Assembly (NCBI GenBank): GCA_902802365.1
Contig: CADCLZ010000001.1
Coordinates: 11,393-75,392 of the forward strand
Length of the DNA stretch: 64,000 bases
From: an uncultured Erysipelotrichaceae bacterium
GTDB taxonomy: Bacteria; Bacillota_I; Bacilli_A; RFN20; CAG-826
Direction of reading: 5' to 3'
The notes below the pieces were generated by a model. The model worked only from the letters and a program-made list of their open reading frames with translations, made no database searches and was not told the origin of the DNA. The position numbers and the translations under genes are program-made. Below, piece by piece: positions 4,288-36,966 of the stretch (its first letter is position 1; each line of letters starts with the position of its first letter).

Positions 4288-6093
4288 ATGAATAAAAAAG
4301 AACCGGCGGCGTCGGCTCCGTTACGGATGGAGCAAAAAGACAAGAACGCGTCCTCGTCTGGCGGAGTTTCCCTCCGTTCGGCCTTCAAAGCAAAGCTCCA
4401 AGAAATCGGGGATCTTTTCCGTTTGCCTGGGGAAGTGGTTTCTTATAAAGAGCTGAAGGATTCCCCTTACTCCATCACCTATAAGGTGGTTTATGACACG
4501 AAGAAAATCTATGTCTTCCAAAACTTCACCGCCAAATTCGGCGCGAACGTGGAAGACATCATGTATAACGCCGAATTGGTGACGGAGCATTTGCGGGGAA
4601 AGCATCTTTCCTCCCTCCATTTCCATCACACCAATTTCCGGGAAAACTTCATTCAGGATGCCAGTGGCGACAATTGGCGGGTCTCCAATTATTTCGATTC
4701 AAAAGAATACGAACAGGCCGACGACCTCGATTTCGCTGAACAAATCGGTCGGGCCGTCGCCAGCTTCCAGCTTTCTTTCTTAGACTTCGATCCTACCGCC
4801 CTCCGCAACATCCTTCCCGATTATCACAATACGAGAAAATTGATCGAAGAAGCCAAAGAAGAAGGCGAAATCACCGAATACCTAAAAGAATCGATGGAGG
4901 ATGCCTGCGCCTTCCAACCGAAAGAACTCCCCATCCGCGTCACCCATAACAACACCAAAATCAACCATTTCCTCTTCGACCAAAACAATGAGCCATTGGC
5001 TTTGATCAGCTTGGATCTGGTGATGCCGGCGACCGGCTTATATGACCTCGCCCACGCGGCCAATGAAGCCTGCATCGACAAAGATGGTTCTTTGAACCTC
5101 TCCAAACTGAAGGCTTATTTGGAAGGCTATCTTAGGGTGGCGAGGTCTTTCTTAAGCCAAGAAGAGATCAAGGACATCCCCCAAGCGTTATTCACTTCGG
5201 CGATTGAGTCCATCGCGGTTGCTTGCCGGCAATACCATGATTCCGGCATGACAAGAAAATTGGAAAAGGCCAAGCGGTTCGTCATTTTGTCCAAAGACAT
5301 CAAAAACAATCAGGAAGCGATCAAGGGATTGATTGAAGATGCCTTGAAGGCCCCGGCGAAGAAAACCGGGATGACCCTCAATGGCTTCCGGCGCGACATC
5401 ATCGCTTCCAAAGACTGGTACGACTATGAAATCGGCGAATATATGGGCATCGCCCTTCCCCATAAGATCAAGCCAAAAGGCGGGAAATTCTATGCTTTCG
5501 GCAAACGGGCTTTCGATATCTTCGCTTCTTTGATGGCGATCATCATTCTGGCTTTGCCGATGCTGATCATCGGCTTGATCGTTGTCTGCACCTCCAAAGG
5601 ATCTGCGTTCTACTTCTCCAAACGAGTTGGCAAAAACGGGAAGATCTTCAACTTCTACAAGTTCCGTTCCATGTATAAGGATGCGGACAAACGCTTGGAT
5701 GAACTCCTTGCCAAGAACGAAGTCGAAGGCGGGGTCATCTTCAAGATCAAAGACGATCCAAGGATCACCCCGTTTGGCAAATTCATCCGCAAAACATCTC
5801 TGGATGAGCTTCCTCAGTTCTTCAACGTCCTCAAGGGCGATATGTCTTTGATTGGCCCAAGGGTTGGCCTTCCTAGGGAGGTCAAAGAATATCCGGAAGA
5901 AGCCTTGGACCGTTTGTTGGTCCCCCAAGGCTTATCCGGCGAATGGCAGGTCAACGGCAGAAGCACCACCACCTTCAACCAAATGGTGGAGATGGATTTG
6001 GATTATATCCAAAATAAGCGCGGCTTTTGGTATGATATCAAATTGATGTTCAAGACGATCGCGGTTGTCTTCAAAGGGAAAGGCGCGGAATGA
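4288..6093 (+). CDS. Fusion protein: N-terminal phosphotransferase (APH/kinase-like) domain + C-terminal polyprenyl-phosphate sugar phosphotransferase (Bac_transf)
   Basis: C-terminus: KRAFDIFASL...single TM...DELPQFFNVLKGDMSLIGPR, the hallmark of WbaP/PglC-type initiating transferases. N-terminal ~380 aa contain RVTHNNTKINHFLFD...ISLDLVMPATGLYDLA, resembling the HxDxxxxN...D catalytic loop of APH/choline-kinase-like enzymes. Exact start uncertain (4288 or 4327). Confidence 0.75.
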   Translation: MNKKEPAASAPLRMEQKDKNASSSGGVSLRSAFKAKLQEIGDLFRLPGEVVSYKELKDSPYSITYKVVYDTKKIYVFQNFTAKFGANVEDIMYNAELVTEHLRGKHLSSLHFHHTNFRENFIQDASGDNWRVSNYFDSKEYEQADDLDFAEQIGRAVASFQLSFLDFDPTALRNILPDYHNTRKLIEEAKEEGEITEYLKESMEDACAFQPKELPIRVTHNNTKINHFLFDQNNEPLALISLDLVMPATGLYDLAHAANEACIDKDGSLNLSKLKAYLEGYLRVARSFLSQEEIKDIPQALFTSAIESIAVACRQYHDSGMTRKLEKAKRFVILSKDIKNNQEAIKGLIEDALKAPAKKTGMTLNGFRRDIIASKDWYDYEIGEYMGIALPHKIKPKGGKFYAFGKRAFDIFASLMAIIILALPMLIIGLIVVCTSKGSAFYFSKRVGKNGKIFNFYKFRSMYKDADKRLDELLAKNEVEGGVIFKIKDDPRITPFGKFIRKTSLDELPQFFNVLKGDMSLIGPRVGLPREVKEYPEEALDRLLVPQGLSGEWQVNGRSTTTFNQMVEMDLDYIQNKRGFWYDIKLMFKTIAVVFKGKGAE

Positions 6094-7109
6094 TTATTAC
6101 CAAAACACCGTTCAGAATGAGTTTTTTTGGGGGCGGGACTGACATGCCCCAGTATTTCCAAAGGCCCGGAAAAAGAGGCGCGGTCATTTCTTCCTCTTTT
6201 GATAAATACGTTTATGTAACCGTGCGCCATCTTCCTCGCTTCTTTAATCACACTACCGAGCTTTTCTATTCCAAAATCGAAAAAGTCAGTAAAATCGACG
6301 ATATCGAGCACCCGATGGTCCGAAATGCCATCAAGATGTTAGAGATGAAAGAACTTCACATCTCTTATGATGCTGACCTTCCTGCCAGAACTGGTTTAGG
6401 GACTTCCAGCACCTTTGCGGTTGGACTTCTAAATGCTTTTTATTGCCTAAAAGGTAAGTACGCATCCAAACAGCAACTGGCAAAAGATGCCATCTTTCTC
6501 GAAAGAGAACTCTGCCAAGAAGCGGGCGGTTGGCAAGATCAAATAGCCGCTTCTTATGGGGGCTTGAACCGCATCGATTTCGACGAAAGCGGCTTTAGAG
6601 TTACTCCAATCATTATCTCCAATGCGAGAAAACAGCAGCTTGAAGGCAACCTCTTGCTCTTTTTTACTGGATTCACCAGATTCTCTGCAGAAATTCAAAA
6701 GTCCACCACTGCAACGCTTGAAGAAAAAGACAAGCAATTCGAGATGATGCTGGAACTGGTTGATAAAGCCCAAGGTATTCTTCAGAACAAAGAGGCGGAT
6801 TTGGACGACTTCGGGAGATTGCTTGATCAAACTTGGAAGTTGAAACGGCAAACCGGCAAAGAAATCACCACCAACACCATTGATTCGCTTTATCAACAAG
6901 GAATCGAGGCGGGGGCTTTAGGAGGCAAACTCCTCGGTGCAGGCGGAGGCGGCTTTCTTCTTTTCTACGTCCCAAAGAAAAAACAAGCCTCGGTTCGGAA
7001 GGCTTTTAAGGACCTTCTTGAAGTTCCTTTCCGTTTCGAAAAGCAAGGCACTCGCGTGATTTACTACACACCAGAAGAATTTGACGTCGAATCCAGCAAG
7101 GAGGAATGA
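6090..7109 (+). CDS. hddA: GHMP-family sugar kinase, D-glycero-D-manno-heptose 7-phosphate kinase-like
   Basis: FFGGGTD and PARTGLGTSSTFAVGLL GHMP motifs. Start overlaps the upstream stop (ATGA). Sits beside gmhA and hddC/gmhB. Confidence 0.65.
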   Translation: MIITKTPFRMSFFGGGTDMPQYFQRPGKRGAVISSSFDKYVYVTVRHLPRFFNHTTELFYSKIEKVSKIDDIEHPMVRNAIKMLEMKELHISYDADLPARTGLGTSSTFAVGLLNAFYCLKGKYASKQQLAKDAIFLERELCQEAGGWQDQIAASYGGLNRIDFDESGFRVTPIIISNARKQQLEGNLLLFFTGFTRFSAEIQKSTTATLEEKDKQFEMMLELVDKAQGILQNKEADLDDFGRLLDQTWKLKRQTGKEITTNTIDSLYQQGIEAGALGGKLLGAGGGGFLLFYVPKKKQASVRKAFKDLLEVPFRFEKQGTRVIYYTPEEFDVESSKEE

Positions 7110-7113
7110 GGAT

Positions 7114-7761
7114 ATGAAGGAGCGTTCTAAAGCCTTTATCGACCAGCTAATATCCCGTTATCCGGAATTAGAGCCTTGCTATGCGGACATCGCCAAAGCC
7201 ACAGAGCTTATGATTGGGTCTTATTCCCAAGGCGGAAAGCTCCTCGTTTGCGGCAACGGCGGTTCTGCTGCCGATAGCGAACATATCGTTGGCGAACTTA
7301 TGAAAGGGTTTGTTTTGCCTCGCCATATTGAGGAAAAACTCGTCAATGCCCTTCGTGAATCCTGTCCGGAGGATGCGGATTATATAACGAAAAACCTACA
7401 GCGGGGATTGCCTGCCATCTCTTTGGTTTCGGAAGTCGGCCTTTCCACCGCTTTCAGCAACGATCAAGCGCCCGATTTGGCATTCGCTCAGCAGGTTTTG
7501 GGCTATGGCAAACCTGGGGATGTTCTCCTCGGCATTTCGACTTCGGGCAATTCCAAAAACGTTGTCTATGCCATTGAGGTTGCCAATGAAATAGGCATCC
7601 ACACCATTGGGCTTACCGGAGCCAAAGCAAGCAAAGTCTCTGAACTTGCCGAAATTACGATCAAAGCCACCGAACAAGAAACCTTCAAAATCCAAGAAAA
7701 GCATCTGCCAATCTATCACGCGATTTGCTTGGCTTTAGAGAATGAATTCTTCGGAGATTGA
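7114..7761 (+). CDS. gmhA: Phosphoheptose (sedoheptulose-7-P) isomerase, SIS domain
   Basis: GGKLLVCGNGGSAADSEH and GISTSGNSKNV SIS motifs. AAGGAGG 9 nt upstream of ATG 7114. The longer ORF from 7081 overlaps hddA. Confidence 0.85.
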   Translation: MKERSKAFIDQLISRYPELEPCYADIAKATELMIGSYSQGGKLLVCGNGGSAADSEHIVGELMKGFVLPRHIEEKLVNALRESCPEDADYITKNLQRGLPAISLVSEVGLSTAFSNDQAPDLAFAQQVLGYGKPGDVLLGISTSGNSKNVVYAIEVANEIGIHTIGLTGAKASKVSELAEITIKATEQETFKIQEKHLPIYHAICLALENEFFGD

Positions 7762-9050
7762 AGATGGTTACCGTCATTATGGCCGGCGGCAAGGGAACCC
7801 GGCTAGGAGGCATAACTCGGCAAATTCCAAAGCCCTTAGTTCCAATTAATGGCGTTCCAATTTTAGAACGCGAAATCGACTGCTTAAGAGATCAAGGGTT
7901 TACAGATATCATTCTAACCGTTTCTTATAAAGCGGATGCGATCATCGAATATTTTGGGGATGGATCAAAGATATCGCCTGTCAGCAACAAGCCTTTTGGG
8001 GTAAAGATCTCTTATTTCGTTGAAGAAGAGCCGCTCGGTAATGCGGGGGCATTATTTAGGATCAAAGACCAATTATCGGATGATTTCTTACTGCTCAACG
8101 CTGATTCGCTTTTTGATATCGACTTCAACCGCTTTGTTGGCTATCACAAAGAAAAAGGAGGATTGGCGACTTTATTCACGCACCCAAACTCCCATCCCTA
8201 TGATTCCGGATTGATCGTTGCCGACAAAGAACATAGGCTCATTCGCTGGCTTTCTAAAGAAGACGAAAGGCCGGCTTGGTATAAAAACAGAGTCAACGCT
8301 GGACTCCACATACTAAATAAAAAAATTCTGGATGTCCAAATTGACACTCCAAAAATCGATTTGGACCGTCAACTCCTTAAACCTTTACAAGGAAGTGGGC
8401 TCATTTATTGTTATGATTCTCCAGAATATGTTAAAGACATGGGCACGCCGGAACGCTTCCATCAAGTAGAAGAGGACCTTAAAAAGGGCATACCTTCTGC
8501 GAAAAACCTGAAGCACAAACAGAAGGCCGTTTTTCTTGACCGGGATGGCACGATTAATAAATTTGTTGGCTTTTTAAGAGATGTCGATCAATTTGAACTG
8601 CTCCCCGGAGTGGCAGATGCGGTCAAACTAATTAACCACTCCGGCTATTTAGTAATTGTAGTCACCAATCAGCCCGTCATCGCTAGGGGCGAGGTGACTT
8701 TCGAAGGATTAGATGATATTCATAACAAAATGGAAACCTTGCTTGGAGAAGAAGGGGCATATCTTGATGCAATTTATTTCTGCCCCCACCATCCGGATAG
8801 CGGGTTTGCTGGAGAGGTCGAAAACCTAAAGATCGATTGCAGTTGCAGGAAGCCAAAGCCAGGCATGTTTCTTCAAGCGGCGAAGGATTTTAATATAGAC
8901 TTATCAGAGTCTTATATGATTGGAGACAGCGAAAACGATGTTAAGGCAGGTCAAAACGCCGGTTGCAAATTGTCGCTCTTAGTTAAAGACAATTTGGCAA
9001 AAACAGTAACTGCTGTTTGGAGCAAAGCTACGGCTCATCTTAACCAGTAA
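7758..9050 (+). CDS. Bifunctional D-glycero-D-manno-heptose 1-phosphate nucleotidyltransferase (HddC-like) / D,D-heptose 1,7-bisphosphate phosphatase (GmhB, HAD)
   Basis: N-terminus: VIMAGGKGTRLGGITRQIPKPLVPING (NTP-transferase). C-terminus: KAVFLDRDGTIN...VVTNQP...CSCRKPKPGM...GDSENDV (GmhB HAD motifs I-IV, Cys-rich loop). Confidence 0.8.
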   Translation: MKMVTVIMAGGKGTRLGGITRQIPKPLVPINGVPILEREIDCLRDQGFTDIILTVSYKADAIIEYFGDGSKISPVSNKPFGVKISYFVEEEPLGNAGALFRIKDQLSDDFLLLNADSLFDIDFNRFVGYHKEKGGLATLFTHPNSHPYDSGLIVADKEHRLIRWLSKEDERPAWYKNRVNAGLHILNKKILDVQIDTPKIDLDRQLLKPLQGSGLIYCYDSPEYVKDMGTPERFHQVEEDLKKGIPSAKNLKHKQKAVFLDRDGTINKFVGFLRDVDQFELLPGVADAVKLINHSGYLVIVVTNQPVIARGEVTFEGLDDIHNKMETLLGEEGAYLDAIYFCPHHPDSGFAGEVENLKIDCSCRKPKPGMFLQAAKDFNIDLSESYMIGDSENDVKAGQNAGCKLSLLVKDNLAKTVTAVWSKATAHLNQ

Positions 9051-24817: not shown

Positions 24818-25731
24818 AAGCAATCGTCACAGGAGCCTGCGGATTCGTGGGAAGCAATCTTGTCAAAGTCTTGGTCGCCCATGGCATCGAGGTTCTTTGC
24901 CTCGATATCAAAATCGACCCTTCCAAACTCCCTAATAGCCAATTGGTAAAAACGATTGAACTATCCATCGATCATGTCGATAAACTTCTTGAAATAATAG
25001 AAGAAGGAGAATATCAACTGTTTTATCATTTCGCGTGGCTAGGGAGCGCTGGGCCGCTCCGTATGGATGAAAAGGTTCAGGTTCAGAATGCGATATGGAC
25101 CATCGATTGTTTACGAATCGCTAAGAAAATCGGCTGCCAGAAATTTATTTGTTCTGGCTCAATTATGGAATTCGAGGTGCATGAAGCAATGTACGCGCAA
25201 GGGAGCAAACCTGGTTTGGCTTACCTTTATGGGGTTGGCAAGGTCCTAGCTCATGAGATGGCCAAACCGATTGCCAATAATTTGGGAATCGAGTTGGTTT
25301 GGGCTTATATAACTAACGCGTATGGCGTCGGCGAAAAATCTCCTCGTTTCATAAACACAACGCTGCGGAAGATCAACCACAAAGAACGCTTGGAATTTAC
25401 TGCAGGAACGCAGAACTACGATTTCGTCTACATCGATGACGTCGCTAACGCCTTTTATTTATTAGGAATCAAAGGCAAGGCCAACAAGGGTTATATCATC
25501 GGCTCGGGCGATGCCAAACCTTTGAAAGAATTCATTTTGGAAATGACAAACGCCAACGCTCCAGATAATCCTCCGCATTTTGGGGATATCCCCTTTACTG
25601 GAGTGAATATACCCCTGTCAACATTTGACATTTCTCCAATCCAAGAGGACTGTGGATTCGAACCAACAGTGTCTTTTGCCGAAGGGACGAAACAAACGAT
25701 GAACTGGCTAAAGGAGATCGACCATGATTAA
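24814..25731 (+). CDS. NAD-dependent epimerase/reductase (SDR) of CDP-/NDP-6-deoxyhexose pathways
   Basis: AIVTGACGFVGSNL Rossmann motif. Y..K catalytic region. Translationally coupled to glf. Confidence 0.75.
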   Translation: MKAIVTGACGFVGSNLVKVLVAHGIEVLCLDIKIDPSKLPNSQLVKTIELSIDHVDKLLEIIEEGEYQLFYHFAWLGSAGPLRMDEKVQVQNAIWTIDCLRIAKKIGCQKFICSGSIMEFEVHEAMYAQGSKPGLAYLYGVGKVLAHEMAKPIANNLGIELVWAYITNAYGVGEKSPRFINTTLRKINHKERLEFTAGTQNYDFVYIDDVANAFYLLGIKGKANKGYIIGSGDAKPLKEFILEMTNANAPDNPPHFGDIPFTGVNIPLSTFDISPIQEDCGFEPTVSFAEGTKQTMNWLKEIDHD

Positions 25732-26299
25732 ATGGAATTTTGAAAAACTCGATTTGGAAGGAGCGTATTTGATTACGCCCTTCTTCGCCGAGGACATCCG
25801 CGGCGGTTTTTTAAAGGATTATTCTCAAGAAGTTTTTGAGCAAAACGGTATTCGCCATGATCTTAAAGAGGTCTTTTATACCATCTCTCATAAAGGTGTC
25901 ATCCGCGCAATGCATTTCCAAAGAGTAAAACAGCAGGCCAAGCTCGTGCGCTGCGTCTCCGGCAAAGTCTATGACGTCATTATTGACCTCCGCAAAGACT
26001 CTTCAACCTTCAAACAATGGAGAGGATTTATCCTCTCAGGGGAAAATCAAAAAGAACTTTTGATTCCTGAAGGGTTTGGACATGGTTATCTGGTTTTGGA
26101 AGATTCCATTGTTTCTTATAAATGCGCGGAGAAGTTTTACGGCGAATATGATGATGGAATCCGTTATGATGACCCTGATATGGGCATTAGTTGGCCATAT
26201 GAAAAAGTTGGCGGGAAAGAGAAAGTAATCAATTCCATCAAGGACGATAATCTGCAGTCATTTAAAGAATTTCTTTCCAATTACGAGGCCTTTTTATAA
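25724..26299 (+). CDS. RmlC-like cupin (NDP-4-keto-6-deoxy-sugar 3,5-epimerase family)
   Basis: FLKDYSQ...RAMHFQ...VYDVIIDLRKDS...GFGHGY. Collinear with dTDP-4-dehydrorhamnose 3,5-epimerase. Confidence 0.8.
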   Translation: MIKWNFEKLDLEGAYLITPFFAEDIRGGFLKDYSQEVFEQNGIRHDLKEVFYTISHKGVIRAMHFQRVKQQAKLVRCVSGKVYDVIIDLRKDSSTFKQWRGFILSGENQKELLIPEGFGHGYLVLEDSIVSYKCAEKFYGEYDDGIRYDDPDMGISWPYEKVGGKEKVINSIKDDNLQSFKEFLSNYEAFL

Positions 26300-27062
26300 T
26301 CCCCCTCAAAATAGCGTCCGGTGGTTCTGCTTTTTCGGGCAGCATAGCCCTCTGCCGCGGGACGGACCAACGCCTGCATCTGTCGTCGGCTATCCGTTGA
26401 ACGGATCTCCGTCAAAGTCGGTCGACAACTGCGCGGCGGCCTGATCTTCTTTGAGCCGATTTCGGATGTGCTTCGCAATCTTCTTCATGTTCCTCCCGAC
26501 CGTTTCCACGTAGTGCCCTCTGCGCCGGAATTCTCGGTTCCGGCGCTTGAGCTTCGCGTTTCCCCGCTTCCGGCAGATCATCAGCGACGACTTTCCCTTC
26601 AGGCATCCCATTATCCCGGAAACCGGGAGTTTGGGCGGGGCCGAAATCAGCGTGTGCCCGTGGTCGGGGCGGACCTCCGCCTCGTGGATGGGATCCCCTT
26701 CCATTCGCAGAGCTTCCTGAGGATCGGGCCGATCTCCAGCCTCTTCAAACCCCTTCCTCCGGCATTTCGGGGTGGAGACGACGTGGCACTTACAGTTCCA
26801 GCACGCATGCGCTGAACTTAGGCTGTCGGATGAATTCGGCATGCGGCTCCTTTCAGATGGCGCGTTGGTCCGCCCCATCGTGATAGGAGCCTTTTTGCGG
26901 ATCAGGCAAAGCTGAAAGCTCAACCGAACTTCCAGACTATTGGGGAGTTTTCGCTTGCTGGATGCTCTGCATCGGCTCAGACAACAAAATCGCCGTCATG
27001 CAAAGACTGGACGCTCTTCTCCCTTTTATACACCTTAGCCGGCGGAAAATATCTTTTTGCTT
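26300..27062 (-). mobile_element. IS200/IS605-family insertion sequence (tnpA only), copy 1
   Basis: GC-rich (about 57%) block beginning right after the cupin stop. Contains tnpA. The left-end 210 bp recur at 30085-30293. Confidence 0.7.
26390..26842 (-). CDS. tnpA: IS200-type HUH (Y1) transposase TnpA
   Basis: From M28: MPNSSDSLSSAHACWNCKCHVVSTPKCRRKGF...DHGHTLIS (HuH)...GKSSLMI...RRGHYVETVGRN (catalytic Tyr). Collinear with IS608 TnpA, about 150 aa. Confidence 0.7.
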   Translation of the reverse strand: MPNSSDSLSSAHACWNCKCHVVSTPKCRRKGFEEAGDRPDPQEALRMEGDPIHEAEVRPDHGHTLISAPPKLPVSGIMGCLKGKSSLMICRKRGNAKLKRRNREFRRRGHYVETVGRNMKKIAKHIRNRLKEDQAAAQLSTDFDGDPFNG

Positions 27063-27160
27063 AACCTCTCACATCGTTGGTATGGGGTAAAATCTGTTTT
27101 ACGCTTCCCAAAACGCGATGAATCAAAGCAAACTTATTCCCTTTCCGCTACAATAAAATC

Positions 27161-28048
27161 ATGCAAGATAAGCCGAAAAACGTGCGTTGCCCAATCTGCC
27201 GAAAATACAAGTATCCGACCGAAGACCATATTCCTCCTCGTTCATGCGGAAACAGTCAAAACACCAAATATCATTTCTTCTTAACCGATTACATCGGAAG
27301 CCAAAACCGTACTGAGTTTATTTCGCAAGGTGGATTAAAAAGACGCTTTCTTTGCTCGGATTGCAACAACAGGCTTTTGGGCGCAGGACCGGACAAAGAA
27401 TTGGGGAGCCTTTGCCAAACGGCCGCGAAAGCGATCAGCGAAAAAGAATCATCTTTAACATGGGAAGGCGATATAAAACAAATCATTGTTGCCGCCTTAG
27501 GGCATATTTTGGGAGCCATGCATTATGACAAGTCGCTTCCCGCCAAAGAAATGAGAGCGTTCATTCATAAAGGCATCGTTCCCGAACAATCAAAGTTATT
27601 TCTATTCCTTTATCCTTTTCACGAAATATTTGTTGTCCGAGATTGCGTTGCCGCTCCATTAAAGCCCAATAAGCAATCGATTTTAACGGAACCAATAGGG
27701 CTATCGGGAATGTATTTTTATCCTCTGGCTTTTATATACACCGAAAAAGAAAACTTAGGGAACGGTTTGGATCTCTTTGAAATTTATCAAGAGGGCGAAA
27801 CCAAGATTACATTAAATATCGATTCTTGGTCCAATCCTATAACAAAAACCGTTCTTCCAGCGGATTGGCCGTTTCATCTTGACAATATCAATGACAACCT
27901 CGATTCGGGGTGCATGACGATGGCGGGCGCAGCTGGAGGCGAAAGCATCTCAACAATTCCTCAATCAAAAGGAGTTCTTATAAAAATACATCATAAGAAC
28001 GGAACGCTGACAAACCCCGCCACAAACGAATTGCTTCGATTCAAATAA
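27161..28048 (+). CDS. HNH-motif nuclease-like N-terminus fused to about 200 aa uncharacterised domain
   Basis: CPICRKYKYPTEDHIPPRSCGN...N...FLCSDCNNRL: CxxC...DH...N...CxxCN beta-beta-alpha-Me pattern. Rest unrecognised. Cargo between the two IS200 copies. Confidence 0.55.
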   Translation: MQDKPKNVRCPICRKYKYPTEDHIPPRSCGNSQNTKYHFFLTDYIGSQNRTEFISQGGLKRRFLCSDCNNRLLGAGPDKELGSLCQTAAKAISEKESSLTWEGDIKQIIVAALGHILGAMHYDKSLPAKEMRAFIHKGIVPEQSKLFLFLYPFHEIFVVRDCVAAPLKPNKQSILTEPIGLSGMYFYPLAFIYTEKENLGNGLDLFEIYQEGETKITLNIDSWSNPITKTVLPADWPFHLDNINDNLDSGCMTMAGAAGGESISTIPQSKGVLIKIHHKNGTLTNPATNELLRFK

Positions 28049-28448
28049 ACATTAAAAAAGGTTTCATATAAGGCGAAAATGTGCCGCAACATCGAAACCG
28101 AGCGCTGCCACCCTCTTGACACCATTTCGTTCAAGAGACAACAATTCTAGCGTGCAAGCGTCTTTTATTACTACGATCGTTCTATTCGAGGCCGCTTCCG
28201 TCATGGAAAAAGCTATAAAGGGCTTTAATGATAGAAACCTTTCTTTGGCGCAGTCACTTCCCTTTTTTCAAATGGGTATTCTATCGTTTTCTCGATTTTA
28301 CCTCCTCGTGAAGCGAATCAGCATGTGGAAGAGCTCTTTCAAAGATGGTGATGAAGAGCCGCTTGGGGTGAGCCATATGATTGTCTGAAAGCCCATTCCG
28401 CTTAAATATTTATGGAATCATCCCTACTCTTTCGTTAGAATGGGGGTC

Positions 28449-29192
28449 ATGAAAAAAGAAGGCCAAACAACAATCGATATTTTATCCGCAAACAAAACAA
28501 CCCTTGAGCTTTTGCACAAGGACCCCAACAACCGCGACCGGAGCTATGAGCACTTCCACCGCGCCTTCATCGAGCAGCTAAATAAGGCGGAGGCCGAAAG
28601 GGATCTCGATTACCTGACCCTCCACCTATTCGCCTATCTGGCCTCCTGGGGGATGCTCAGGGGTTCGACCTTCTCCCTCCAGAAAGACTATCTGTTCCAT
28701 AAACCGATCATTGAGATCCTCCTGGACGAAAAATACAAAAGGCTATTGGACATTTCATGGGAGGATCTCGACGAAGATGCGATTCGTGACATCCTCGACC
28801 TCAAGGCGAGGATCACGGCTTATTATAAGGGAGAGTCCTACATCTCTTCCGTTTACGCCTCCGCCCCGGAGATAAAAAGGATCGCCTGCGTCCATGACGT
28901 CCTCGTCTCCAAAATCCTTTTAGGCTCCTATTCCTGCGTCCTGGCCTACGACACCAATGTGAGGGGAGGGCTAAAAAGCAAAGGCCTTTGCCAAAGCTTC
29001 GGGAAAAGGAGCCTATCTCAGCTAAAGGAATTCGCGGGGGAACACGCCGAAGAGTTGGCGGAAGCGTCAAGACTCATGGAAGCCGAACGGGGCATGAAAT
29101 ATTCGGATATGAAGCTATTGGATTCCTATTTCTTTGCCTTGGGGGCCGCGGAGTATGAGAAAAAGAGGGCCCTTGAATCGCAGTTGGGGTAG
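28449..29192 (+). CDS. Hypothetical protein (GC-rich, no recognisable motifs)
   Basis: 248 aa. TGGGGGTC 2 nt upstream of ATG 28449 (the ORF track starts at 28440). About 54% GC, acidic helical composition. Confidence 0.45.
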   Translation: MKKEGQTTIDILSANKTTLELLHKDPNNRDRSYEHFHRAFIEQLNKAEAERDLDYLTLHLFAYLASWGMLRGSTFSLQKDYLFHKPIIEILLDEKYKRLLDISWEDLDEDAIRDILDLKARITAYYKGESYISSVYASAPEIKRIACVHDVLVSKILLGSYSCVLAYDTNVRGGLKSKGLCQSFGKRSLSQLKEFAGEHAEELAEASRLMEAERGMKYSDMKLLDSYFFALGAAEYEKKRALESQLG

Positions 29193-29221
29193 CCCATCAA
29201 TTTGCCCTAAGAGATTACTTT

Positions 29222-29518
29222 CTAAACCCTCTTGAACAGGTCCCTCGTATAGACTTTATCCTTCACGTCGTCCAGACAGGGATCGTACCGATTCGCGATG
29301 ATCGCGTGGCTGGCTTTCTTGAACTCGGCCAGATCCTTGATGACCTCGCTCCCGAAGAACTCATCTTCCTTCAGGGTCGGCTCATAGACCACCACTTTGG
29401 CCCCTTTGGCTTTTGTTCTCTTCATGACGCCTTGGATCGCGGACGCCCGGAAATTGTCGGAGTTGCTCTTCATGATGAGGCGGTAGATGCCGGCGCCGGC
29501 GATCTTCACATTCTTCAT
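29222..29518 (-). pseudogene. C-terminal fragment of UDP-glucose/GDP-mannose 6-dehydrogenase
   Basis: 98 aa matching the UDPG_MGDP_dh_C end ([10 protein letters not shown]...[24 protein letters not shown]...). N-terminal about 300 aa missing. Confidence 0.6.
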
Positions 29519-29884
29519 ACCAGACCTCGTTATCTATGATAGGGTTCCGTTTTGCAACGAAAGCATTATAACAACATCTTTATTAAATGTTTGCTGCTTT
29601 AGCCGCCTTAACATTTTTTCGCGCTCGATAACGGGAAGATAAAACTTTTTCTAACCCCGATAACAAATAGGTCTGCCATTTTGGTCTAGTGGCATCAAAA
29701 CTGTACTAATTCACATGATGTGGCACCTTCCGGGAGAGAGACCATTGGGCGCCTAATCGCCCTGATCTCCTCCAAGAGCCTGATAGCCCCTTCAGCCTTG
29801 CTTCCATCGCGGCCGATTACGACCCATTACCTAAACTGGCGCATCTTTTACTGCCCGGATTGGTTATTTGCATGTTACCCTTAT

Positions 29885-30293
29885 CATTGGAGCACACCTG
29901 CGCCTCGTGGATGGGATCCCCTTCCACTCGCAGAGCTTACGGGGGTGACCCCTATCCCCGGCCTCTTCAGGCCGTTGAACCACTTCCTCCGGTGCTTCGG
30001 GGCGAAAACGACGTGGTGCTTACAGTCCCACCGGGTTTGGGCTAGACTTAGGTTGTCAGTCTTATCTGGCGTTTGGCTCCTTTCAGATGGCGCGTTGGTC
30101 CGCCCCATCGTGATAGGAGGCTTTTTGCGGAAGCTAAAAGCTCAATCGAGCTCCCAGACGATCGGGGAGTTTTCACTCGCTGGATGCTTTGCGTCGGCTC
30201 AGACAACAAAATCGCCGTCATGCAAAGACCGGACGCTCTTCTCCCTTTATACACCTTAGCCGAAGGAAAATATCTTTTTGCTTAGCCTCTTTG
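29885..30293 (-). mobile_element. Truncated IS200-family remnant, copy 2 (left end plus first about 60 tnpA codons)
   Basis: 30085-30293 matches 26856-27062 closely. 29893-30084 matches the tnpA 5' region of copy 1, with frameshifts (MGRTNAPSERS...WDCKHHVVFAPKHRRK). Same orientation as copy 1. Confidence 0.65.
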
Positions 30294-30387
30294 TTGGCGA
30301 TTTGAGGATTTACGTCGTCCATGCCGGAAAGGGCAAGCAAAATGTTAGTATCGATCAAAATCATCTTTGAAACTTAATCAGGGTTAT

Positions 30388-31482
30388 TTATAGCCGCTTC
30401 TTCCTCCAAAAGGGGGCAAATAAAGAAATCGCTTCTTCAATGCTCATTGATGGATTAATTCCATGCGATTCATCAAGAAAAACGCAGTTTATGAATTGGT
30501 CCATATAGAAATTGTGAACTCTCCGCGGGAAATGAGCGATAGGGGTTTCATAGAAGCTCTTAAATGTTTCAAAATGATCTAAAGACCCGAACCGTGACCA
30601 CGCTCGATATAATTCTTCTTCAGGTTTGATATCCACCACATATATTTGCTTCATGTGAGGTTCCCTTCGCTCCCAGGCCTTTTTAATTAGTTCGATTGCC
30701 AAGGCGTCGCTTTCAGGAGCGCTATAACCAATGAAAGTCAGCACCGAGGCGCTGTTTAAAAACGAATCAAGCGACTCCCACGACTTTTTTATGGCCGGGT
30801 CTTGATCATATCTTTTGTTTTTAACAGGGAAGAGAAGCTTTGATTTCCTGTAAGTTTCGCGCAAATCCGACCGGCAATCGGGATTTAAGCCAATCTTGGT
30901 TCCTTCCAATTTAACAATTTCCGCGACGTTCCCATGGAGAAAAAGCAGCATAGGAAGGCGTTCCCAACCAATCAGCTTTTCAATTCTACAATAAGCTTGA
31001 ACAATTAAAGGATCCCAGTTGAAGGTCGCAATTGCGTCGTTGTGATTCAACGACAAAATCAAATGATCGTACATCGTCGCGTGGTCGGGGATTCTGAATT
31101 GGGAATAAAAGTTATAAATTGCGTTATTCACCTCATCAAGAGCCTCTGAAAACTTGGTGTTTTCCTTTTGCCTGTCATATAACTCTGAGTAGATGGTTTC
31201 TAGATTGTCAGAATCGACTCTCAAACCCAATGAACGAATGTAGTCAGTTAGCCCCAATACATCCAAGAATCCAGCCATGCAGGATGATTTGTGACCAGTT
31301 TTGTCTCCATTCGGAATTGCTGCCATCGTGGCTCCTGCGCCTAAGACAACAATATTGGGACGAATGCGCCGGTTAAAAGGAACGGTCATGTTCCAAGAAT
31401 TATAAATGGAATAACCCGGGTTCTTGGGATCCATCATCTCCTTCAACCCTTTGATATATTGCAGGTACTCTTTTCCGTCCAT
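30388..31482 (-). CDS. SIR2-like (SIR2_2 / DUF4917-type) protein; putative NAD+-consuming effector
   Basis: IVVLGAGATMAAIPNG (GAG Rossmann-like NAD motif). LFLHGN (HG motif). TFIGYSAPESDALAI (hGYS..D motif of SIR2_2). GAGGAG RBS 6 nt upstream. Last gene of the four-gene operon. Confidence 0.5.
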   Translation of the reverse strand: MDGKEYLQYIKGLKEMMDPKNPGYSIYNSWNMTVPFNRRIRPNIVVLGAGATMAAIPNGDKTGHKSSCMAGFLDVLGLTDYIRSLGLRVDSDNLETIYSELYDRQKENTKFSEALDEVNNAIYNFYSQFRIPDHATMYDHLILSLNHNDAIATFNWDPLIVQAYCRIEKLIGWERLPMLLFLHGNVAEIVKLEGTKIGLNPDCRSDLRETYRKSKLLFPVKNKRYDQDPAIKKSWESLDSFLNSASVLTFIGYSAPESDALAIELIKKAWERREPHMKQIYVVDIKPEEELYRAWSRFGSLDHFETFKSFYETPIAHFPRRVHNFYMDQFINCVFLDESHGINPSMSIEEAISLFAPFWRKKRL

Positions 31483-31554
31483 AACTGCTCCTCTCTATAT
31501 TGATCAGTTTCCGAATAGACCGCTATGAAATGCAAAGGAACGGAAACCAGACCA

Positions 31555-33069
31555 TCACGAATGATCGTTTCTGCCTTTAAGGTGATTGACTAGCGACAAA
31601 ACGTCACGAAGCAAACGTTCGTCCGTGATGAAAAGCATAATCTTTGTACGCGCTCGGGTGAGACCTTGATACAAAAGCTTGTCAAAGATGTAATCATGGC
31701 TTGGGTGTTCAACCGATCTTAAAACCCCATTCTCATAGCAAAAATGGTTGTCCATTATCATGCACACGCCATCAAATTCTTGTCCTATAACCGAATGGGT
31801 ATTCAATCTCCCTTTTTGATAATCTAGCGAAGAATCATAGAAAGATGCTGTATAGGAGATGTAGGTAAAGCCAAGAGGCTCAGCTGCTTTTGCCCTCTTA
31901 ACCGCTTCTTGGGCGTCTGGTTCGAAATAAATCTGAACATTTGGGAATGAAAACGAAGGCTTGAAATGGTGTTTATTCCGCAAACACGAAATAAACAAAT
32001 CAATCTCTTCGTTTGTACGGATGCATTTTCTCAAGTTCGCGTGGTATTGACCACACAAATCTTCAATCCGATCAACGGTGTTTCTTTTCTCTTCCGAATG
32101 AGACAACTTCTGCCCCGAATCGTAAGAAAAGACGCAAATGGCTTTGGTTTTCTTAACCCATCGCTCGATTTTATCAAGGTGGGATTCGTAGAGGCGATGA
32201 GATTCATCAACCATGATGACTTCCGCTGACCTAATTTCTCGGTATCCCAATGCCTTTGCGGGAACAACAAGAAGGTTTTCGGACATTGTATTTAAGCTGT
32301 TGTGTCCTTCGCAAAGGAGCCCGGAGTGAACGATCATCACTTTTATCCCTTGATTCGCTAGATCTTTGGCAATGTCGTAGAGCAACAGCGTCTTTCCAGT
32401 GCCAGGGCCGCCCGTGAGACGAAAAAACTTATCCGCTGGACCAGAAAGTGCGTAAGAAAGAATTTCGCTTTTGATGTTTTCTTGGTGTTCGGTCAAGAAA
32501 TATTTTCCTTCCCAAAAGTCTTTGGGCGCATTCAAAGGCGAAATCAAAACGTTGAATGGTGAAAGAACGGCATCCGAGTCGGTGGCGCAGGGAACAAAGT
32601 CGGCAAGTTTAATGATTTCGGTGCCGAAAGCCCCTTCCTCCAAGTTGTCACCAACCAACTTAAAAAACCGACGATTTGACGAAACGAAACAATACGAGCA
32701 AACGTTCTTCCCCAAAATCTTTAAGTAATGCCGATTTTCAGTCAATTGCTTTTTTATCTGTTGATCCGGAACCATCATGCTTTTTAACTCAATATTTAAA
32801 ATCGTTTCATCGGTGATTTTCAGCAGATCAAATTCTTTGCCTAAATTGGGGATGACGTATCCCATGATAAAGCCGGACGCGGAACGTTCGGACCAACCCC
32901 CTTCTTTCAAAAGGGCTTTGACATCGAGGATTTCATTATGCCGATAACTTCCTTTTCCACCCGTTAGATAAGGAATGTACTCTTCGCTTAGTTCCTTGTT
33001 ATCGGCAAGTTTTATGAGATCGAATAATGAAACCAATTTATTGTTCATCTGCTCGTCTCGCTTTCTCAT
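31555..33069 (-). CDS. DUF2075-type SF1-helicase-like P-loop NTPase with N-terminal PD-(D/E)xK (NERD-like) nuclease motif
   Basis: N-terminus: EFDLLKITDETILNIELK (D...ExK). Walker [14 protein letters not shown]. Walker B VIMVDESHRL. Motif VI-like YQGLTRARTKIMLF. Start 33069 or 33048. Either one overlaps the upstream RloB-like stop (33038). Confidence 0.6.
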   Translation of the reverse strand: MRKRDEQMNNKLVSLFDLIKLADNKELSEEYIPYLTGGKGSYRHNEILDVKALLKEGGWSERSASGFIMGYVIPNLGKEFDLLKITDETILNIELKSMMVPDQQIKKQLTENRHYLKILGKNVCSYCFVSSNRRFFKLVGDNLEEGAFGTEIIKLADFVPCATDSDAVLSPFNVLISPLNAPKDFWEGKYFLTEHQENIKSEILSYALSGPADKFFRLTGGPGTGKTLLLYDIAKDLANQGIKVMIVHSGLLCEGHNSLNTMSENLLVVPAKALGYREIRSAEVIMVDESHRLYESHLDKIERWVKKTKAICVFSYDSGQKLSHSEEKRNTVDRIEDLCGQYHANLRKCIRTNEEIDLFISCLRNKHHFKPSFSFPNVQIYFEPDAQEAVKRAKAAEPLGFTYISYTASFYDSSLDYQKGRLNTHSVIGQEFDGVCMIMDNHFCYENGVLRSVEHPSHDYIFDKLLYQGLTRARTKIMLFITDERLLRDVLSLVNHLKGRNDHS

Positions 33070-33634
33070 TTTTCATCGACGCGACCGCTTTATCCATCGT
33101 CAAAGCAAAATTCGCACGATTATATCCTTCTAGACACGCTTCAGTGGAATAACTCAATTTGCCCTTAATCCGTTCATTCTTCAGATAGGCTTTCTTCGTG
33201 TTTTTAAAGTACATCGCGCGGTCAACTTTGTTTGCTTCTGGGTGTGAAACCTCTAACACCTGCTCAATGTTTTTGGAGAAGGCCATCGGCAAAAAGCCAT
33301 TCTTTTTGCACCACCGAATGAGCGCCTCGTTCTTTGCCTTCTCCGCTTTGCCTTTTGAATCGACGTCAAAGCAAATGATCGGAACGATCTCAAATAACTC
33401 CTTGGGATAGAACTGCCTCTTGGCCCGTTCGATTGCTTTGGTGGTGCTGGAAGAGATAATGTTCCCTTTGCCTGCGACATGAAGGAAGACGCGCTTTGCC
33501 GGATAACCAGATGCTCCGCCATATTGGAAATAAAGCCCATAATATGCATCGATCAGCGCGCTTAAATAAACGTTGTCGGTTTTAGCAAGCGAGGTCGTCT
33601 CGCACACGATGATCAAAGCGAGGGCTTTATTCAT
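33038..33634 (-). CDS. RloB/AbiLii-like protein (TOPRIM-like)
   Basis: Start set at M52 of the track ORF (ATG 33634), which overlaps the ATPase stop as GATGAATAA. ALIIVCETTS...NVYL (IVCEGxxTE-like). PIICFDVD (VFDRD-like). MAFSKNIEQVLEVSHPE (SNpcFElWllLH-like). Confidence 0.55.
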   Translation of the reverse strand: MNKALALIIVCETTSLAKTDNVYLSALIDAYYGLYFQYGGASGYPAKRVFLHVAGKGNIISSSTTKAIERAKRQFYPKELFEIVPIICFDVDSKGKAEKAKNEALIRWCKKNGFLPMAFSKNIEQVLEVSHPEANKVDRAMYFKNTKKAYLKNERIKGKLSYSTEACLEGYNRANFALTMDKAVASMKNEKARRADEQ

Positions 33635-34982
33635 CCTTTTGCTCGTCTCCAAAGATCTCCGCGAATTGATATTCGCTGATATTAAATGGAATTCCCAAAA
33701 TGAATCCACCCAAATAAGGCCCTTTGGGATTCTTTCTGGCGCCCCTGCTCCAGGGCACAATGCCGTTTCCTTCCGTAAGGAAATCAATAGAGTTTCCGGT
33801 TTTATTCAGTGGATCCATGATTTCGACGTTATGGGTGGTCATGACAATTTGGGCATCGCTTGAGAAGAGGAAATACTCAATCAGGACCGTGATATAAACA
33901 TCGTGGATATCGGAATCGATTTCATCAATGAAGACGATAGATCCCCGCGCGGCGGCCAAAAAGGCGTAGAAAAGCCTGGTGAGCTTTTTAATGCCTGTCG
34001 ACTCGAATTCATAATCCACTCTGAAGCCGCTTTGATAGCCATAAGTTAAATTGACGACAAGCGTGTCAACATCTTCTTTATAAGAGGGCTCAACCCGGAT
34101 GAGGCCCGGCTTCATAATTTTCAAAAAAGCAGCCAATTTTCCCAAAGAAGATTCAAAGGTCTTCTTTTCGGTTTTTTCGATAATGTCGAAGCAATCCCTA
34201 TGAAAGCTCTTTGTCATACCCTTTCTTTGCCGGTTGGTCATCCATCTTTGCAAGATTCCCAATCGTTGCTGCTCGTTTTTCTTATTTCGATCCATGAGCA
34301 GCTCCATCATTTTCTGAACGGCGAAGGATTCGTGGCTATCAGAGGTTTCACCGAAGAAGACAGAGATATTGGACGCACACAAAAATGCCTGAGCCAAAGT
34401 CATCAAGGAAGGAACGGGATCCTTCTCAATCGCCTTTTTGGCAAAAAGGTCCATCAGTAAAGAACCAGACAAAGTGTGTTTTGTAAAATCAACTTTGCTT
34501 TGATTCGCAAAGGATACAAAATCCGGCTTCCCGATGAATTCACCATTCCTCTGCCCGGCCAAGATATCGGACTCTTCCTTTTTGCTCAAACCGAAAATTT
34601 CCTCTTCGAAAATCCTTAAAGACCCGAATTCGTCGTACCCGATTTTCAGGGAATGGCTGAGGAATTTGTCTGGTTCGTCAGATTTACGACGAATCCGATA
34701 GGTCATCTGAATCGAGAGGCTCTTTCGGTTTTTGTTGATGAGCCTCGTTAAAATCGAGACGGTGGGCGAATCGTCCAAACTCGTTTCGTTTTTGGCGAGG
34801 CGGGCGTAGAAATCCGCTGCCAAAACAATTCCCGTTTTACCCACGCCATTGGCGCCATAAATCGCTTTGATCAATCCTTTGGTTTCTTTTTTCGTTGATC
34901 TGGGGTTGTCAAACTTAAGAGTGATATCCTCTTTGATGCTTTTGATTCCGCCGACGGACATGGACAATAATGTGATTCTCAT
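33627..34982 (-). CDS. ABC/OLD-family (AAA_15/AAA_21-type) ATPase lacking a TOPRIM domain; AbiLi/RloA-like
   Basis: N-terminus: MRITLLSMSVGGIKSIKE...AIYGANGVGKTGIV (Walker A). C-terminus: SIVFIDEIDSDIHD (Walker B/D-loop) and VMTTHN (H-loop). First gene of the operon. Confidence 0.7.
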   Translation of the reverse strand: MRITLLSMSVGGIKSIKEDITLKFDNPRSTKKETKGLIKAIYGANGVGKTGIVLAADFYARLAKNETSLDDSPTVSILTRLINKNRKSLSIQMTYRIRRKSDEPDKFLSHSLKIGYDEFGSLRIFEEEIFGLSKKEESDILAGQRNGEFIGKPDFVSFANQSKVDFTKHTLSGSLLMDLFAKKAIEKDPVPSLMTLAQAFLCASNISVFFGETSDSHESFAVQKMMELLMDRNKKNEQQRLGILQRWMTNRQRKGMTKSFHRDCFDIIEKTEKKTFESSLGKLAAFLKIMKPGLIRVEPSYKEDVDTLVVNLTYGYQSGFRVDYEFESTGIKKLTRLFYAFLAAARGSIVFIDEIDSDIHDVYITVLIEYFLFSSDAQIVMTTHNVEIMDPLNKTGNSIDFLTEGNGIVPWSRGARKNPKGPYLGGFILGIPFNISEYQFAEIFGDEQKDE

Positions 34983-34996
34983 AAATTTACATAAAA

Positions 34997-35051
34997 GTGA
35001 AATTTTTCACTTATTTGTTTATACTATATCACCATTCTATTTGTCTTTAAA
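34997..35051 (-). promoter_or_regulatory. Putative promoter (-35 TTTAAA, 17 nt, TGa-TATAGT) with perfect palindrome GTGAAATTTTTCAC in the leader
   Basis: Minus-strand reading: TTTAAA (35051-35046), extended -10 TGATATAGT (35031-35023). Palindrome at 34997-35010 lies between the -10 and ATG 34982. No obvious Shine-Dalgarno. Confidence 0.3.
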
Positions 35052-35578
35052 AGATTCAAATGAGTCCTCTATAATTAAATAGATTTTTAAAATGCTTTTT
35101 GGGCTGCTTTTTTGAAACAGGAAGCGAAAATTCGTGTTTTCATTTTTATTTCGGATGAGAAAGAGAAGATACATCCTTTAATTTTCGTAGAAGCTGGCCA
35201 AAAGTTCCGGGCAACCTAGGTTGGCATCTTCCATGGCTGCAAAAAGACCACGGAAGAATGCGGATGCTCAAGGGATGATTAGGCTAGTTTGAAAACATTC
35301 TCCGACTGCTTTTCAAAAAACACCTAATGGAAATGCGGCGTTTTTCAGATCAATCGCGTTTTTTATTTCTCTACCGTGATTTTTATGACAATAGAGCATG
35401 CAGCCCTTCTGAAATGAATAGTCAAAATCGAGGGTAAACGAAAAAATAAAAGGCGGCTAAGCCGTCTTCTACCGCGCGGGATAACCCCGGGCCCATAAAT
35501 ATCATATCACTTTTTAGAAGCGCGACTCATAAAACTGGCTTGTCGTGAAAAAGGTGCGATTTTCCACATCTTCAGGTT

Positions 35579-36301
35579 TTATTTGCAAAGGCTATGGGCG
35601 GCTTCGTCGACGTAGACAGTGACGTCGGGGTGCCTCTGGAGGATGCTGCAGGGCATTTCCTCGGTGATCGGCCCTTTGATGAGGCCATAGACCGCTTTCG
35701 CTTTGTTCGCCCCGGTGGCGATCAGGACGATCTTCCTCGCATTCATGATGGACTGAAGGCCCATCGTGACCGCCCTAACAGGAACTTCGGAAATGTCGTT
35801 GAACAACCTGGAATTGTCTTTGATGGTCTGCTCCGTCAACGCGGTTTCGTGGGTCAAAGAATCAAAAGGCGTCCCAGGCTCATTGAAGGCGATGTGGCCG
35901 TCGCTCCCGATGCCGAGGATCTGGATGTCGATGCCGCCGGCTTCTTCGATCTTTTGATCGTATCCCTCCATGAAGGAAACATAATCGCCAACCCCAAGTA
36001 GGACATTGGTTTTGCTTTTATCGATATCGACGTGGTTGAAGAGGTTCTCGTTCATGAAATAACGATAGGATTGGTTATGGGTTCCTTCCAAACCAACATA
36101 TTCATCGAGGTTGAAGGTCGTGACTCCCAAAAACGATACACGCCCCTCGTGGTTTGCCTTAATAAGATTGGCATAGACCTTCAATGGGGAGGTCCCTGTC
36201 GCCAATCCAAGAACGGGATGGCTTTTGCCATTTATCGTTTTGATGAATTCCTCCGCGATTTTCGCGGAGATCTCTTCTTCGCTTCCGATAACAACTTTCA
36301 T
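35579..36301 (-). CDS. nagB: Glucosamine-6-phosphate deaminase
   Basis: LGLATGTSP...DEY...GIGSDGHIAFNEPG. Collinear with NagB. Confidence 0.9.
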   Translation of the reverse strand: MKVVIGSEEEISAKIAEEFIKTINGKSHPVLGLATGTSPLKVYANLIKANHEGRVSFLGVTTFNLDEYVGLEGTHNQSYRYFMNENLFNHVDIDKSKTNVLLGVGDYVSFMEGYDQKIEEAGGIDIQILGIGSDGHIAFNEPGTPFDSLTHETALTEQTIKDNSRLFNDISEVPVRAVTMGLQSIMNARKIVLIATGANKAKAVYGLIKGPITEEMPCSILQRHPDVTVYVDEAAHSLCK

Positions 36302-36966
36302 TGTTTCTTCTCCACCACCACATTGGTCGATTTGACGATGCTGTTATTGGGATAGACGCCTCTAGTCATCGTCAAGGGATAGACTTGGGTGTTTTGGCCA
36401 ATGATGGTCCCTGGATTCAAAACGGAGTTGCAGCCGATATCAGCATGATCGCCCAAAAAAGAGCCGACCTTGCGGATTCCCGTATTAATGTCTTCCTCGC
36501 CGTGGATGACGACGGGTTTGCCGTCGCTTCTAAGGTTGGAGCAGATGCTTCCTGCGCCCATATGGGCGTAATTCCCAAGGATCGAATCGCCAACATAGTT
36601 ATAATGCGGGGCTTGGCAGTGACTTAGCAAAACCGCATTCTTGAATTCTGATGAATTGCCCAGCACGCATTGATCCCCGATCAAAACCAAACCGCGGATG
36701 AAACATCCGGGTCGGATTTCAACGTTGTTGCCGATGATGGCCGGCCCGATGATCGTCGCCGTGTCGGCGATCATCACGGTTTGACCAATAAGCGCATCAT
36801 CCTTAAGTTTCGTATAACCGGGGAGGCCTTTTTCAATCAAAGATTGAATATAAGGCTTAATAAGGGGTAGCAACTCCCAAGGATATTCTTTGGAGAAGAT
36901 GAAAGAGTCGATGTGCTCGATTCCGGAAGGGTGGAAAAGGCTCTTATTGGTGATCTTCATAGGCAT
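36298..36966 (-). CDS. Left-handed beta-helix (hexapeptide repeat) protein, GlmU C-terminal/acyltransferase-like
   Basis: Repeats IGPAIIGNNVEIRPGCFIRGLVLIGDQCVLG...IGCNSVLNPGTIIG. Translationally coupled between glmM-like and nagB. Confidence 0.5.
   Translation of the reverse strand: MPMKITNKSLFHPSGIEHIDSFIFSKEYPWELLPLIKPYIQSLIEKGLPGYTKLKDDALIGQTVMIADTATIIGPAIIGNNVEIRPGCFIRGLVLIGDQCVLGNSSEFKNAVLLSHCQAPHYNYVGDSILGNYAHMGAGSICSNLRSDGKPVVIHGEEDINTGIRKVGSFLGDHADIGCNSVLNPGTIIGQNTQVYPLTMTRGVYPNNSIVKSTNVVVEKKQ

Follow-up and report, generated by a model that had tools for sequence, protein, structure and literature searches.

A divergent member of the Nhi/AbiO nuclease-helicase family in a compact defence island of an uncultured Erysipelotrichaceae bacterium

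The open reading frame at positions 31555..33069 (minus strand) of the 64,000-nt stretch of DNA analyzed here (the window) raises two questions: which kind of enzyme does it encode, and does this enzyme form a functional unit with the genes that it overlaps? The original prediction had described the product as a DUF2075 SF1-type helicase carrying an N-terminal, NERD/Mrr-like nuclease motif, and had placed the gene in one operon with an upstream RloB-like gene rather than regarding it as an independent module.

Reading frame, start codon and the two halves of the protein

We found the reading frame uninterrupted over 504 codons, and all motifs quoted in the original prediction are present in it: EFDLLKITDETILNIELK at residues 79-96 (504-aa numbering, used throughout; window 32782-32835), the Walker A segment at residues 220-230 (32380-32412), VIMVDESHRL at residues 284-293 (32191-32220) and YQGLTRARTKIMLF at residues 467-480 (31630-31671). 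Two ATG codons, at 33069 and 33048, are candidate starts and both overlap the upstream ORF, whose stop codon TAA lies at 33040-33038, as had been predicted. M-x-N-K at the position of M8 begins essentially all of the 26 aligned relatives, and the public gene call P0001 has a length of 497 aa and is 100% identical to the window protein. By these homologue N-termini and the gene call a start at 33069 (504 aa) was rejected, and the true start is most likely the ATG at 33048. The gene thus covers 31555..33048 (-), encodes 497 aa that are matched over their full length by PADLOC profiles, and shares an 11-nt start/stop overlap with the small upstream gene (ATGAACAATAA, 33038..33048, -). Within 22 nt upstream of the ATG at 33048 no Shine-Dalgarno-like match was found. 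The identical gene with its flanks occurs on three separate metagenome assemblies; since these independent assemblies agree and the frame is intact, the gene is neither an assembly artefact nor the frameshifted pseudogene that the original prediction had considered.

The N-terminal half (residues 8-190; 32500..33048, -) was analyzed by alignment and by structure prediction. Five predicted catalytic residues are invariant across the 27 aligned sequences, namely E46 (32932-32934), D81 (32827-32829), E94 (32788-32790), K96 (32782-32784) and Q108 (32746-32748; all -), and the D...ExK pattern pointed out earlier turned out to be exactly the PD-(D/E)xK motif of the alignment and of the structural matches. 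An AlphaFold2 model of residues 8-192 (pLDDT 87.1) has the alpha-beta-beta-beta-alpha-beta core of restriction-endonuclease-like enzymes, in which the second strand carries D81, the third E94 and K96, and the helix after it Q108. This model structurally matches HsdR (3H1T), 3IJM, Dna2 and Cas4, and the Foldseek matches of the nuclease half include the Cas4-family protein ACE1 (E 7e-5), bunyavirus cap-snatching endonucleases and 3IJM. The scores are moderate, and the assignment of the modelled domain to the PD-(D/E)xK fold is consistent; the concern that this region might lack a nuclease fold is answered by the model together with Foldseek. The label 'NERD/Mrr-like' holds at the level of the superfold, but a specific kinship with NERD or Mrr was not seen in Pfam, PADLOC or the structural matches. 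Pfam returned no family, NERD included, for residues 8-192 even at E<=10, NCBIfam had no name for the domain, the NERD-containing PADLOC models gave weak matches confined to the P-loop/helicase region, and NERD or Mrr entries were absent from the listed structural matches. With neither a profile nor a top structural match, the assignment to NERD (PF08378) or Mrr was rejected; the nearest folds are those of HsdR/type IIG REase, Dna2 and Cas4.

For the C-terminal half (31558..32499, -), the call of a DUF2075 SF1 P-loop helicase was borne out by Pfam and by Foldseek, and we describe this half as an SF1B-like helicase core. PF09848 (formerly DUF2075, now SLFN-g3_helicase) matches residues 218-352 above the gathering score (E 2.7e-8) and is the only Pfam family found on the whole protein. 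The helicase motifs, all on the minus strand, are strongly conserved among the 27 sequences. In motif I (GGPGTGKT, 32380-32412), G220 and G223-T-G-K-T227 are invariant, while a few sequences deviate at G221 and P222. Invariant as well are D288-E289..R292 of motif II (DESH, within 32191-32220), D317..Q320 of the motif III-like SYDSGQ (32110-32127), R351-T-N353 of the motif IV-like IRTN (32011-32022), G429-Q-E431 of the motif V-like VIGQEFD (31771-31791) and Q468-G..T471-R472..R474 of motif VI (QGLTRAR, within 31630-31671). The AlphaFold2 model of the whole protein (pLDDT 82.6) retrieved RecD2 (3GPL), Dna2 (5EAW), SLFN11, Upf1 and T4 Dda (3UPU) with E-values from about 1e-9 to 3e-6, SF1B structures being its top Foldseek matches. 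A search of the solved structures by sequence returned nothing useful (best E 0.12).

Family placement and comparison with Nhi and AbiO

Among the standard defence-annotation profiles, the PADLOC AbiO profile PDLC02350 matches best (E 1.6e-127, residues 13-494 on profile positions 4-467 of 468), and the Nhi profile PDLC02372 aligns over nearly the same range (E 1.2e-121, residues 12-494 on positions 3-469 of 470). The protein database contained 4253 relatives at E<=1e-5, the closest non-identical one in the databases searched being only 53% identical. From the full-length profile matches and this number of relatives we conclude that the gene is real, far beyond chance. Homologues are frequent on conjugative plasmids, although the plasmid homologues found are only about 30-35% identical to the window protein: the Bacillus anthracis pXO1 copy, which is called Nhi by defence-finders (PMC11811056), shows 33% identity over 88% of the length of the window protein, and a Lactococcus lactis plasmid copy, not confirmed as AbiO itself, 31% identity over 87%. 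Relatives also occur in four phage records, which agrees with the two Streptococcus phage homologues reported in the Nhi study (10.1101/776245). Judged by its sequence, the product is an intact member of Nhi/AbiO, a family of single-protein anti-phage enzymes described before; this placement is based on profiles and plasmid homologues. The original prediction was therefore right about a nuclease combined with a helicase and missed that this is the known Nhi/AbiO architecture. Architecture, family and defence role are already published, and the standard profiles recognize the gene.

Nhi (nuclease-helicase immunity) is SERP2475 of Staphylococcus epidermidis RP62a (Bari et al. 2022; preprint 10.1101/776245). 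The N-terminal PD-(D/E)xK domain of SERP2475 was matched by HHpred to HsdR (3H1T), and its DUF2075 SF1 helicase matches Dda (3UPU), Upf1 and Dna2 (10.1101/776245). The isolated N-terminal 230 aa are a metal-dependent 3'-5' exonuclease and nickase, an activity that is nearly absent in the full-length protein, which unwinds duplexes with either overhang; changes to alanine in the presumed nuclease or helicase domain abolish defence, and the SSB of one phage group protects against Nhi (10.1101/776245). One Bacteroidetes homologue tested in the same study gave no protection (10.1101/776245). AbiO is an abortive-infection gene of L. lactis (Prevots & Ritzenthaler 1998; reviewed in PMC13064643), for which a 2026 review of lactococcal Abi systems gives a predicted 3IJM-like nuclease, an Upf1-like SF1B helicase and an SLFN group 3 domain, and which is toxic at high copy number (PMC13064643). 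In a survey of the Bacillus cereus group, there were occasional cases (4) in which annotation tools gave both names, AbiO and Nhi, to identical sets of proteins (PMC11811056).

The window protein shares with Nhi the single polypeptide with an N-terminal PD-(D/E)xK domain and a DUF2075 SF1B-like helicase, the matches to HsdR 3H1T, Dda 3UPU, Upf1 and Dna2, and the location in a defence island with variable R-M/ATPase neighbours. It differs in its length (497 aa compared to 606 aa for SERP2475), ending just after motif VI and lacking the poorly conserved C-terminal glyoxalase/bleomycin-resistance-like domain of S. epidermidis Nhi. Its host is an uncultured rumen/gut lineage instead of a staphylococcus, and nuclease and helicase activities are on record for SERP2475 only. 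With AbiO it has in common the best PADLOC profile, the same predicted restriction-endonuclease-like (3IJM) plus SF1B (Upf1-like, SLFN group 3) architecture and the encoding of both domains by a single gene; the differences are the location in a chromosomal island, not on a plasmid, and the identity of about 31% to the L. lactis plasmid homologue. The structural matches that we found independently are the reference structures reported for Nhi (3H1T, 3UPU) and AbiO (3IJM, Upf1). Nuclease-helicases of the Dna2/AddAB/RecB type and type I HsdR resemble the window protein as well, in that a PD-(D/E)xK nuclease is fused to, or works with, an SF1/SF2 motor, and they are structural neighbours of its halves. 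However, no significant sequence similarity to them was observed, their domain sizes and accessory domains are different (the window protein has no Fe-S cluster and no HsdR C-terminal region), and they are not defence singletons.

Neighbouring genes and operon organization

The gene is the third of four co-directional genes, in the order ATPase, small gene, Nhi/AbiO and SIR2-like gene, with spacings of -8, -11 and +72 nt. The first of them (33627..34982, -) encodes an AbiLi-like AAA_21/SMC-type ATPase of 451 aa (Pfam AAA_21, E 6.4e-13; PADLOC AbiLi, E 3e-30) and overlaps by 8 nt (ATGAATAA) with the small gene (33038..33634, -), whose 198-aa product we describe as a Toprim-like (RloB/AbiLii-like) protein on account of a conserved acidic signature and the ATPase partner. 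In a word-indexed database of 5.8 billion proteins the 198-aa protein matched itself only; an exhaustive phmmer search found 37 remote relatives. Their alignment contains the conserved signature E...TD..Y...GKxN...DxD...IE, in which the E is near-invariant, DxD is invariant and IE is conserved. The protein itself had no Pfam, PADLOC or NCBIfam match, RloB (PF13707) and AbiLii included, and among 35 members of its family there were one weak RloB match (E 0.034) and one weak Toprim match (E 0.0038). The earlier label 'RloB-like' is reasonable but unproven: the Toprim-like E...DxD...E signature and the ATPase partner give it weak support, and a significant RloB profile match was not obtained. Homologues of the small protein are directly preceded by an ATPase homologue in L058, L059 and L061-L064, these ATPases being 31-48% identical to the window ATPase wherever upstream sequence is available, and the gene that follows is never Nhi but a YobI-type ATPase, an OLD-like protein or housekeeping genes. 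Since the pair recurs elsewhere without Nhi, the ATPase and the small protein are, by comparison of sequences, a two-gene module of their own. Like AbiL (AbiLi/AbiLii) and the split ATPase plus Toprim pairs that reviews group with it (PARIS), the module combines overlapping genes for an AAA_21/SMC-like ATPase and, after it, a small Toprim-like protein; unlike AbiL, its small protein has no significant AbiLii/RloB profile match and comes close to being an orphan. It seems to represent a divergent branch, as yet unnamed, among the AbiL-type ATPase plus Toprim-like pairs; this refers to the ATPase and the small protein together.

The fourth gene (30388..31482, -; 364 aa) is located 72 nt downstream of the Nhi/AbiO gene and has its own ribosome-binding site (AGGAG, spacing 5). 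We found 1706 relatives of its product with a length of about 345 aa, some of them named SIR2 family by their sources, and no Pfam, PADLOC or NCBIfam match for the protein itself. In a prophage (L066) one homologue lies by itself, flanked by the terminase and portal genes, and another lies by itself in a Tn7-like/copper-resistance region (L065). The data suggest an uncharacterized, stand-alone SIR2-like defence or moron gene.

A promoter-like site (TTTAAA-17-TG-TATAGT, 35023..35051, -; consensus match only) precedes the ATPase gene and is the only one on the minus strand ahead of the four genes. Between this site (35051-35023) and the ATPase ATG at 34982 we observed a perfect palindrome, GTGAAAAATTTCAC, within 34983-35022 (-), which is a possible candidate operator for transcription of the island. 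Our scan found neither a promoter-like nor a convincing terminator-like site between the four genes; as it yielded fewer sites than shuffled sequences, it carries no statistical weight for or against an internal promoter. The tight spacing, the single promoter-like site and the missing Shine-Dalgarno sequence at the Nhi start make co-transcription and coupling plausible: one promoter probably serves all four genes, and translation of the Nhi gene is probably coupled, by termination-reinitiation, to that of the gene before it.

The low-GC island is located between the rml/glf sugar-nucleotide genes and nagB. In its other half we observed a Y1 transposase gene (26390-26923, -; PF01797 in L001), a protein of 295 aa whose N-terminus gives a weak HNH_5 match (27161-28048, +; E 2e-4) and a 250-aa protein without matches (28440-29192, +). 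Of a UDP-glucose/GDP-mannose dehydrogenase, a 98-aa ORF (29222-29518, -) comprises no more than the C-terminal domain (PF03720, same gene in L001). Beside it, in a stretch of higher GC (29600-30300), lies a short ORF (29884-30108, -), of which the segment WDCKHHVVFAPKHRRK resembles the N-terminus of IS200-type Y1 transposases. The truncated dehydrogenase and the Y1-like ORF look like insertion scars at the island edge. Rfam gave no RNA family in 25000-36500.

For a comparison of gene neighbourhoods we used 54 loci that encode relatives, taken from species-representative genomes. Searched by tblastn, none of them showed a homologue of the three neighbouring gene products (ATPase, small protein and 364-aa protein), and no conserved partner gene was found across the set. 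The immediate neighbours of the Nhi/AbiO relatives belong to many small unrelated families: among 114 neighbours of 42 intact homologues, DNA methylases, ResIII/HsdR, HsdM/HsdS and serine recombinases were the commonest Pfam families, no single family occurred more than 4 times and AAA_21 was not among the leading ones. Several homologues abut unrelated genes with gaps from -4 to +20 nt, so that tight spacing is typical of the Nhi/AbiO gene wherever it is located.

By the look of the sequences, locus L006 shows the order HsdM-HsdS-Nhi with a 4-nt overlap and L041 the order HsdM-HsdS-Nhi-HsdR with small gaps; Pfam confirmed R-M families among the neighbours of all loci taken together. A recurrent association of Nhi/AbiO homologues with R-M systems is possible and would be in line with the neighbour statistics of the Nhi study, in which homologues were found among R-M genes, methylases and recombinases (10.1101/776245). 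In L007 a 1048-aa protein (4768-7911, +) is encoded directly upstream of the Nhi homologue; it seems to have a SIR2-like N-terminus and a long C-terminal region resembling short-pAgo/APAZ fusions.

Possible roles of the gene and its place in the island

In our opinion the gene very probably encodes a stand-alone, single-polypeptide anti-phage enzyme of the Nhi/AbiO type, with activities, trigger and defence phenotype taken from the literature on the family. On the model of S. epidermidis Nhi, the SF1B-like DUF2075 motor would be loaded onto intermediates of phage replication. These could be either single-stranded overhangs or theta forms that are supercoiled, and the phage SSB may mark them. 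ATP-driven unwinding would feed the DNA to the PD-(D/E)xK domain, which would normally be auto-inhibited and would now be released to nick or exonucleolytically degrade the phage DNA, thereby blocking its accumulation. The outcome could be abortive, as for AbiO, or non-abortive, as for Nhi. Such an enzyme would work alone, and its position after the AbiL-like pair and before the SIR2-like gene would reflect independent modules packed in one defence island.

A different explanation is one composite multi-gene system of the ATPase, the Toprim-like protein and the nuclease-helicase, perhaps also including the SIR2-like protein, in which the pair senses and the nuclease-helicase acts as effector, or the reverse. 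We regard such a system as improbable, given that homologues of its other components were detectable in 0 of 54 loci, that AAA_21 is not a top neighbour family of the 42 intact homologues, and that homologues of the small protein always follow an ATPase and never precede Nhi. The close spacing of the co-directional genes and the lack of promoter-like or convincing terminator-like sites between them would fit a composite system, and the missing Shine-Dalgarno match leaves room for dependence on upstream expression; however, homologues abut many unrelated upstream genes at equally small gaps. Furthermore, the literature counts PF13304 ATPases and Toprim proteins among the defence genes most often seen beside Nhi homologues (10.1101/776245), but Nhi and AbiO each work as single genes (10.1101/776245; PMC13064643). 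Of the predicted operon, the overlap is real and co-transcription is plausible, while the idea of one functional module finds no counterpart in the comparison, the linkage being seen in none of the 54 loci and the pair recurring alone. A functional dependence of the Nhi/AbiO gene on the upstream pair is thus not supported, and comparative genomics argues against it. That the AbiL-like pair and the Nhi/AbiO enzyme are coupled because they cooperate, the pair for example nicking, or sensing phage proteins, and so providing entry sites, seems decidedly improbable to us; if true, this cooperation would represent a lineage-specific three-gene composite system (four-gene with the SIR2-like gene).

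We also considered roles outside defence, i.e. a housekeeping or mobile-element nuclease-helicase for DNA repair/replication, or for plasmid maintenance (Dna2/RecD2/AddAB-like). The presence of RecD2 and Dna2 among the best structural matches and the many homologues on conjugative plasmids would agree with this, but the protein resembles RecD only marginally in sequence (TIGR01447, 26 bits versus a cut-off of 310) and the defence profiles match the protein over its full length. In addition, its distribution is patchy, the flanking regions vary and contain many defence genes, and the GC content of the gene is below that of the surrounding window (0.425 versus 0.474), so that we give this explanation very little credence. 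A decaying, non-functional copy, finally, is barely conceivable. The window protein is indeed the most divergent of its clade and of the 27-sequence set (53% identity at most) and departs from 20 near-invariant family positions (e.g. Q111E, G217R, N457S and P458H). However, none of the 20 deviating positions is catalytic, although Q111E adjoins the nuclease motif; every catalytic and motif residue is kept, the reading frame has no interruption, three assemblies carry the identical sequence and the AlphaFold2 model is confident.

With the stand-alone Nhi/AbiO-type enzyme as the preferred reading, the gene raises no new question and is a routine addition to a known family. It adds a divergent member (at most 53% identity to any relative in the databases searched) to the Nhi/AbiO family from an uncultured rumen/gut lineage, and it belongs to a compact defence island within a cell-wall sugar locus, composed of an AbiL-like pair, Nhi/AbiO and a stand-alone SIR2-like gene. 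It is of use for annotation and offers a further natural sequence to structure-function studies of a helicase that auto-inhibits its nuclease.
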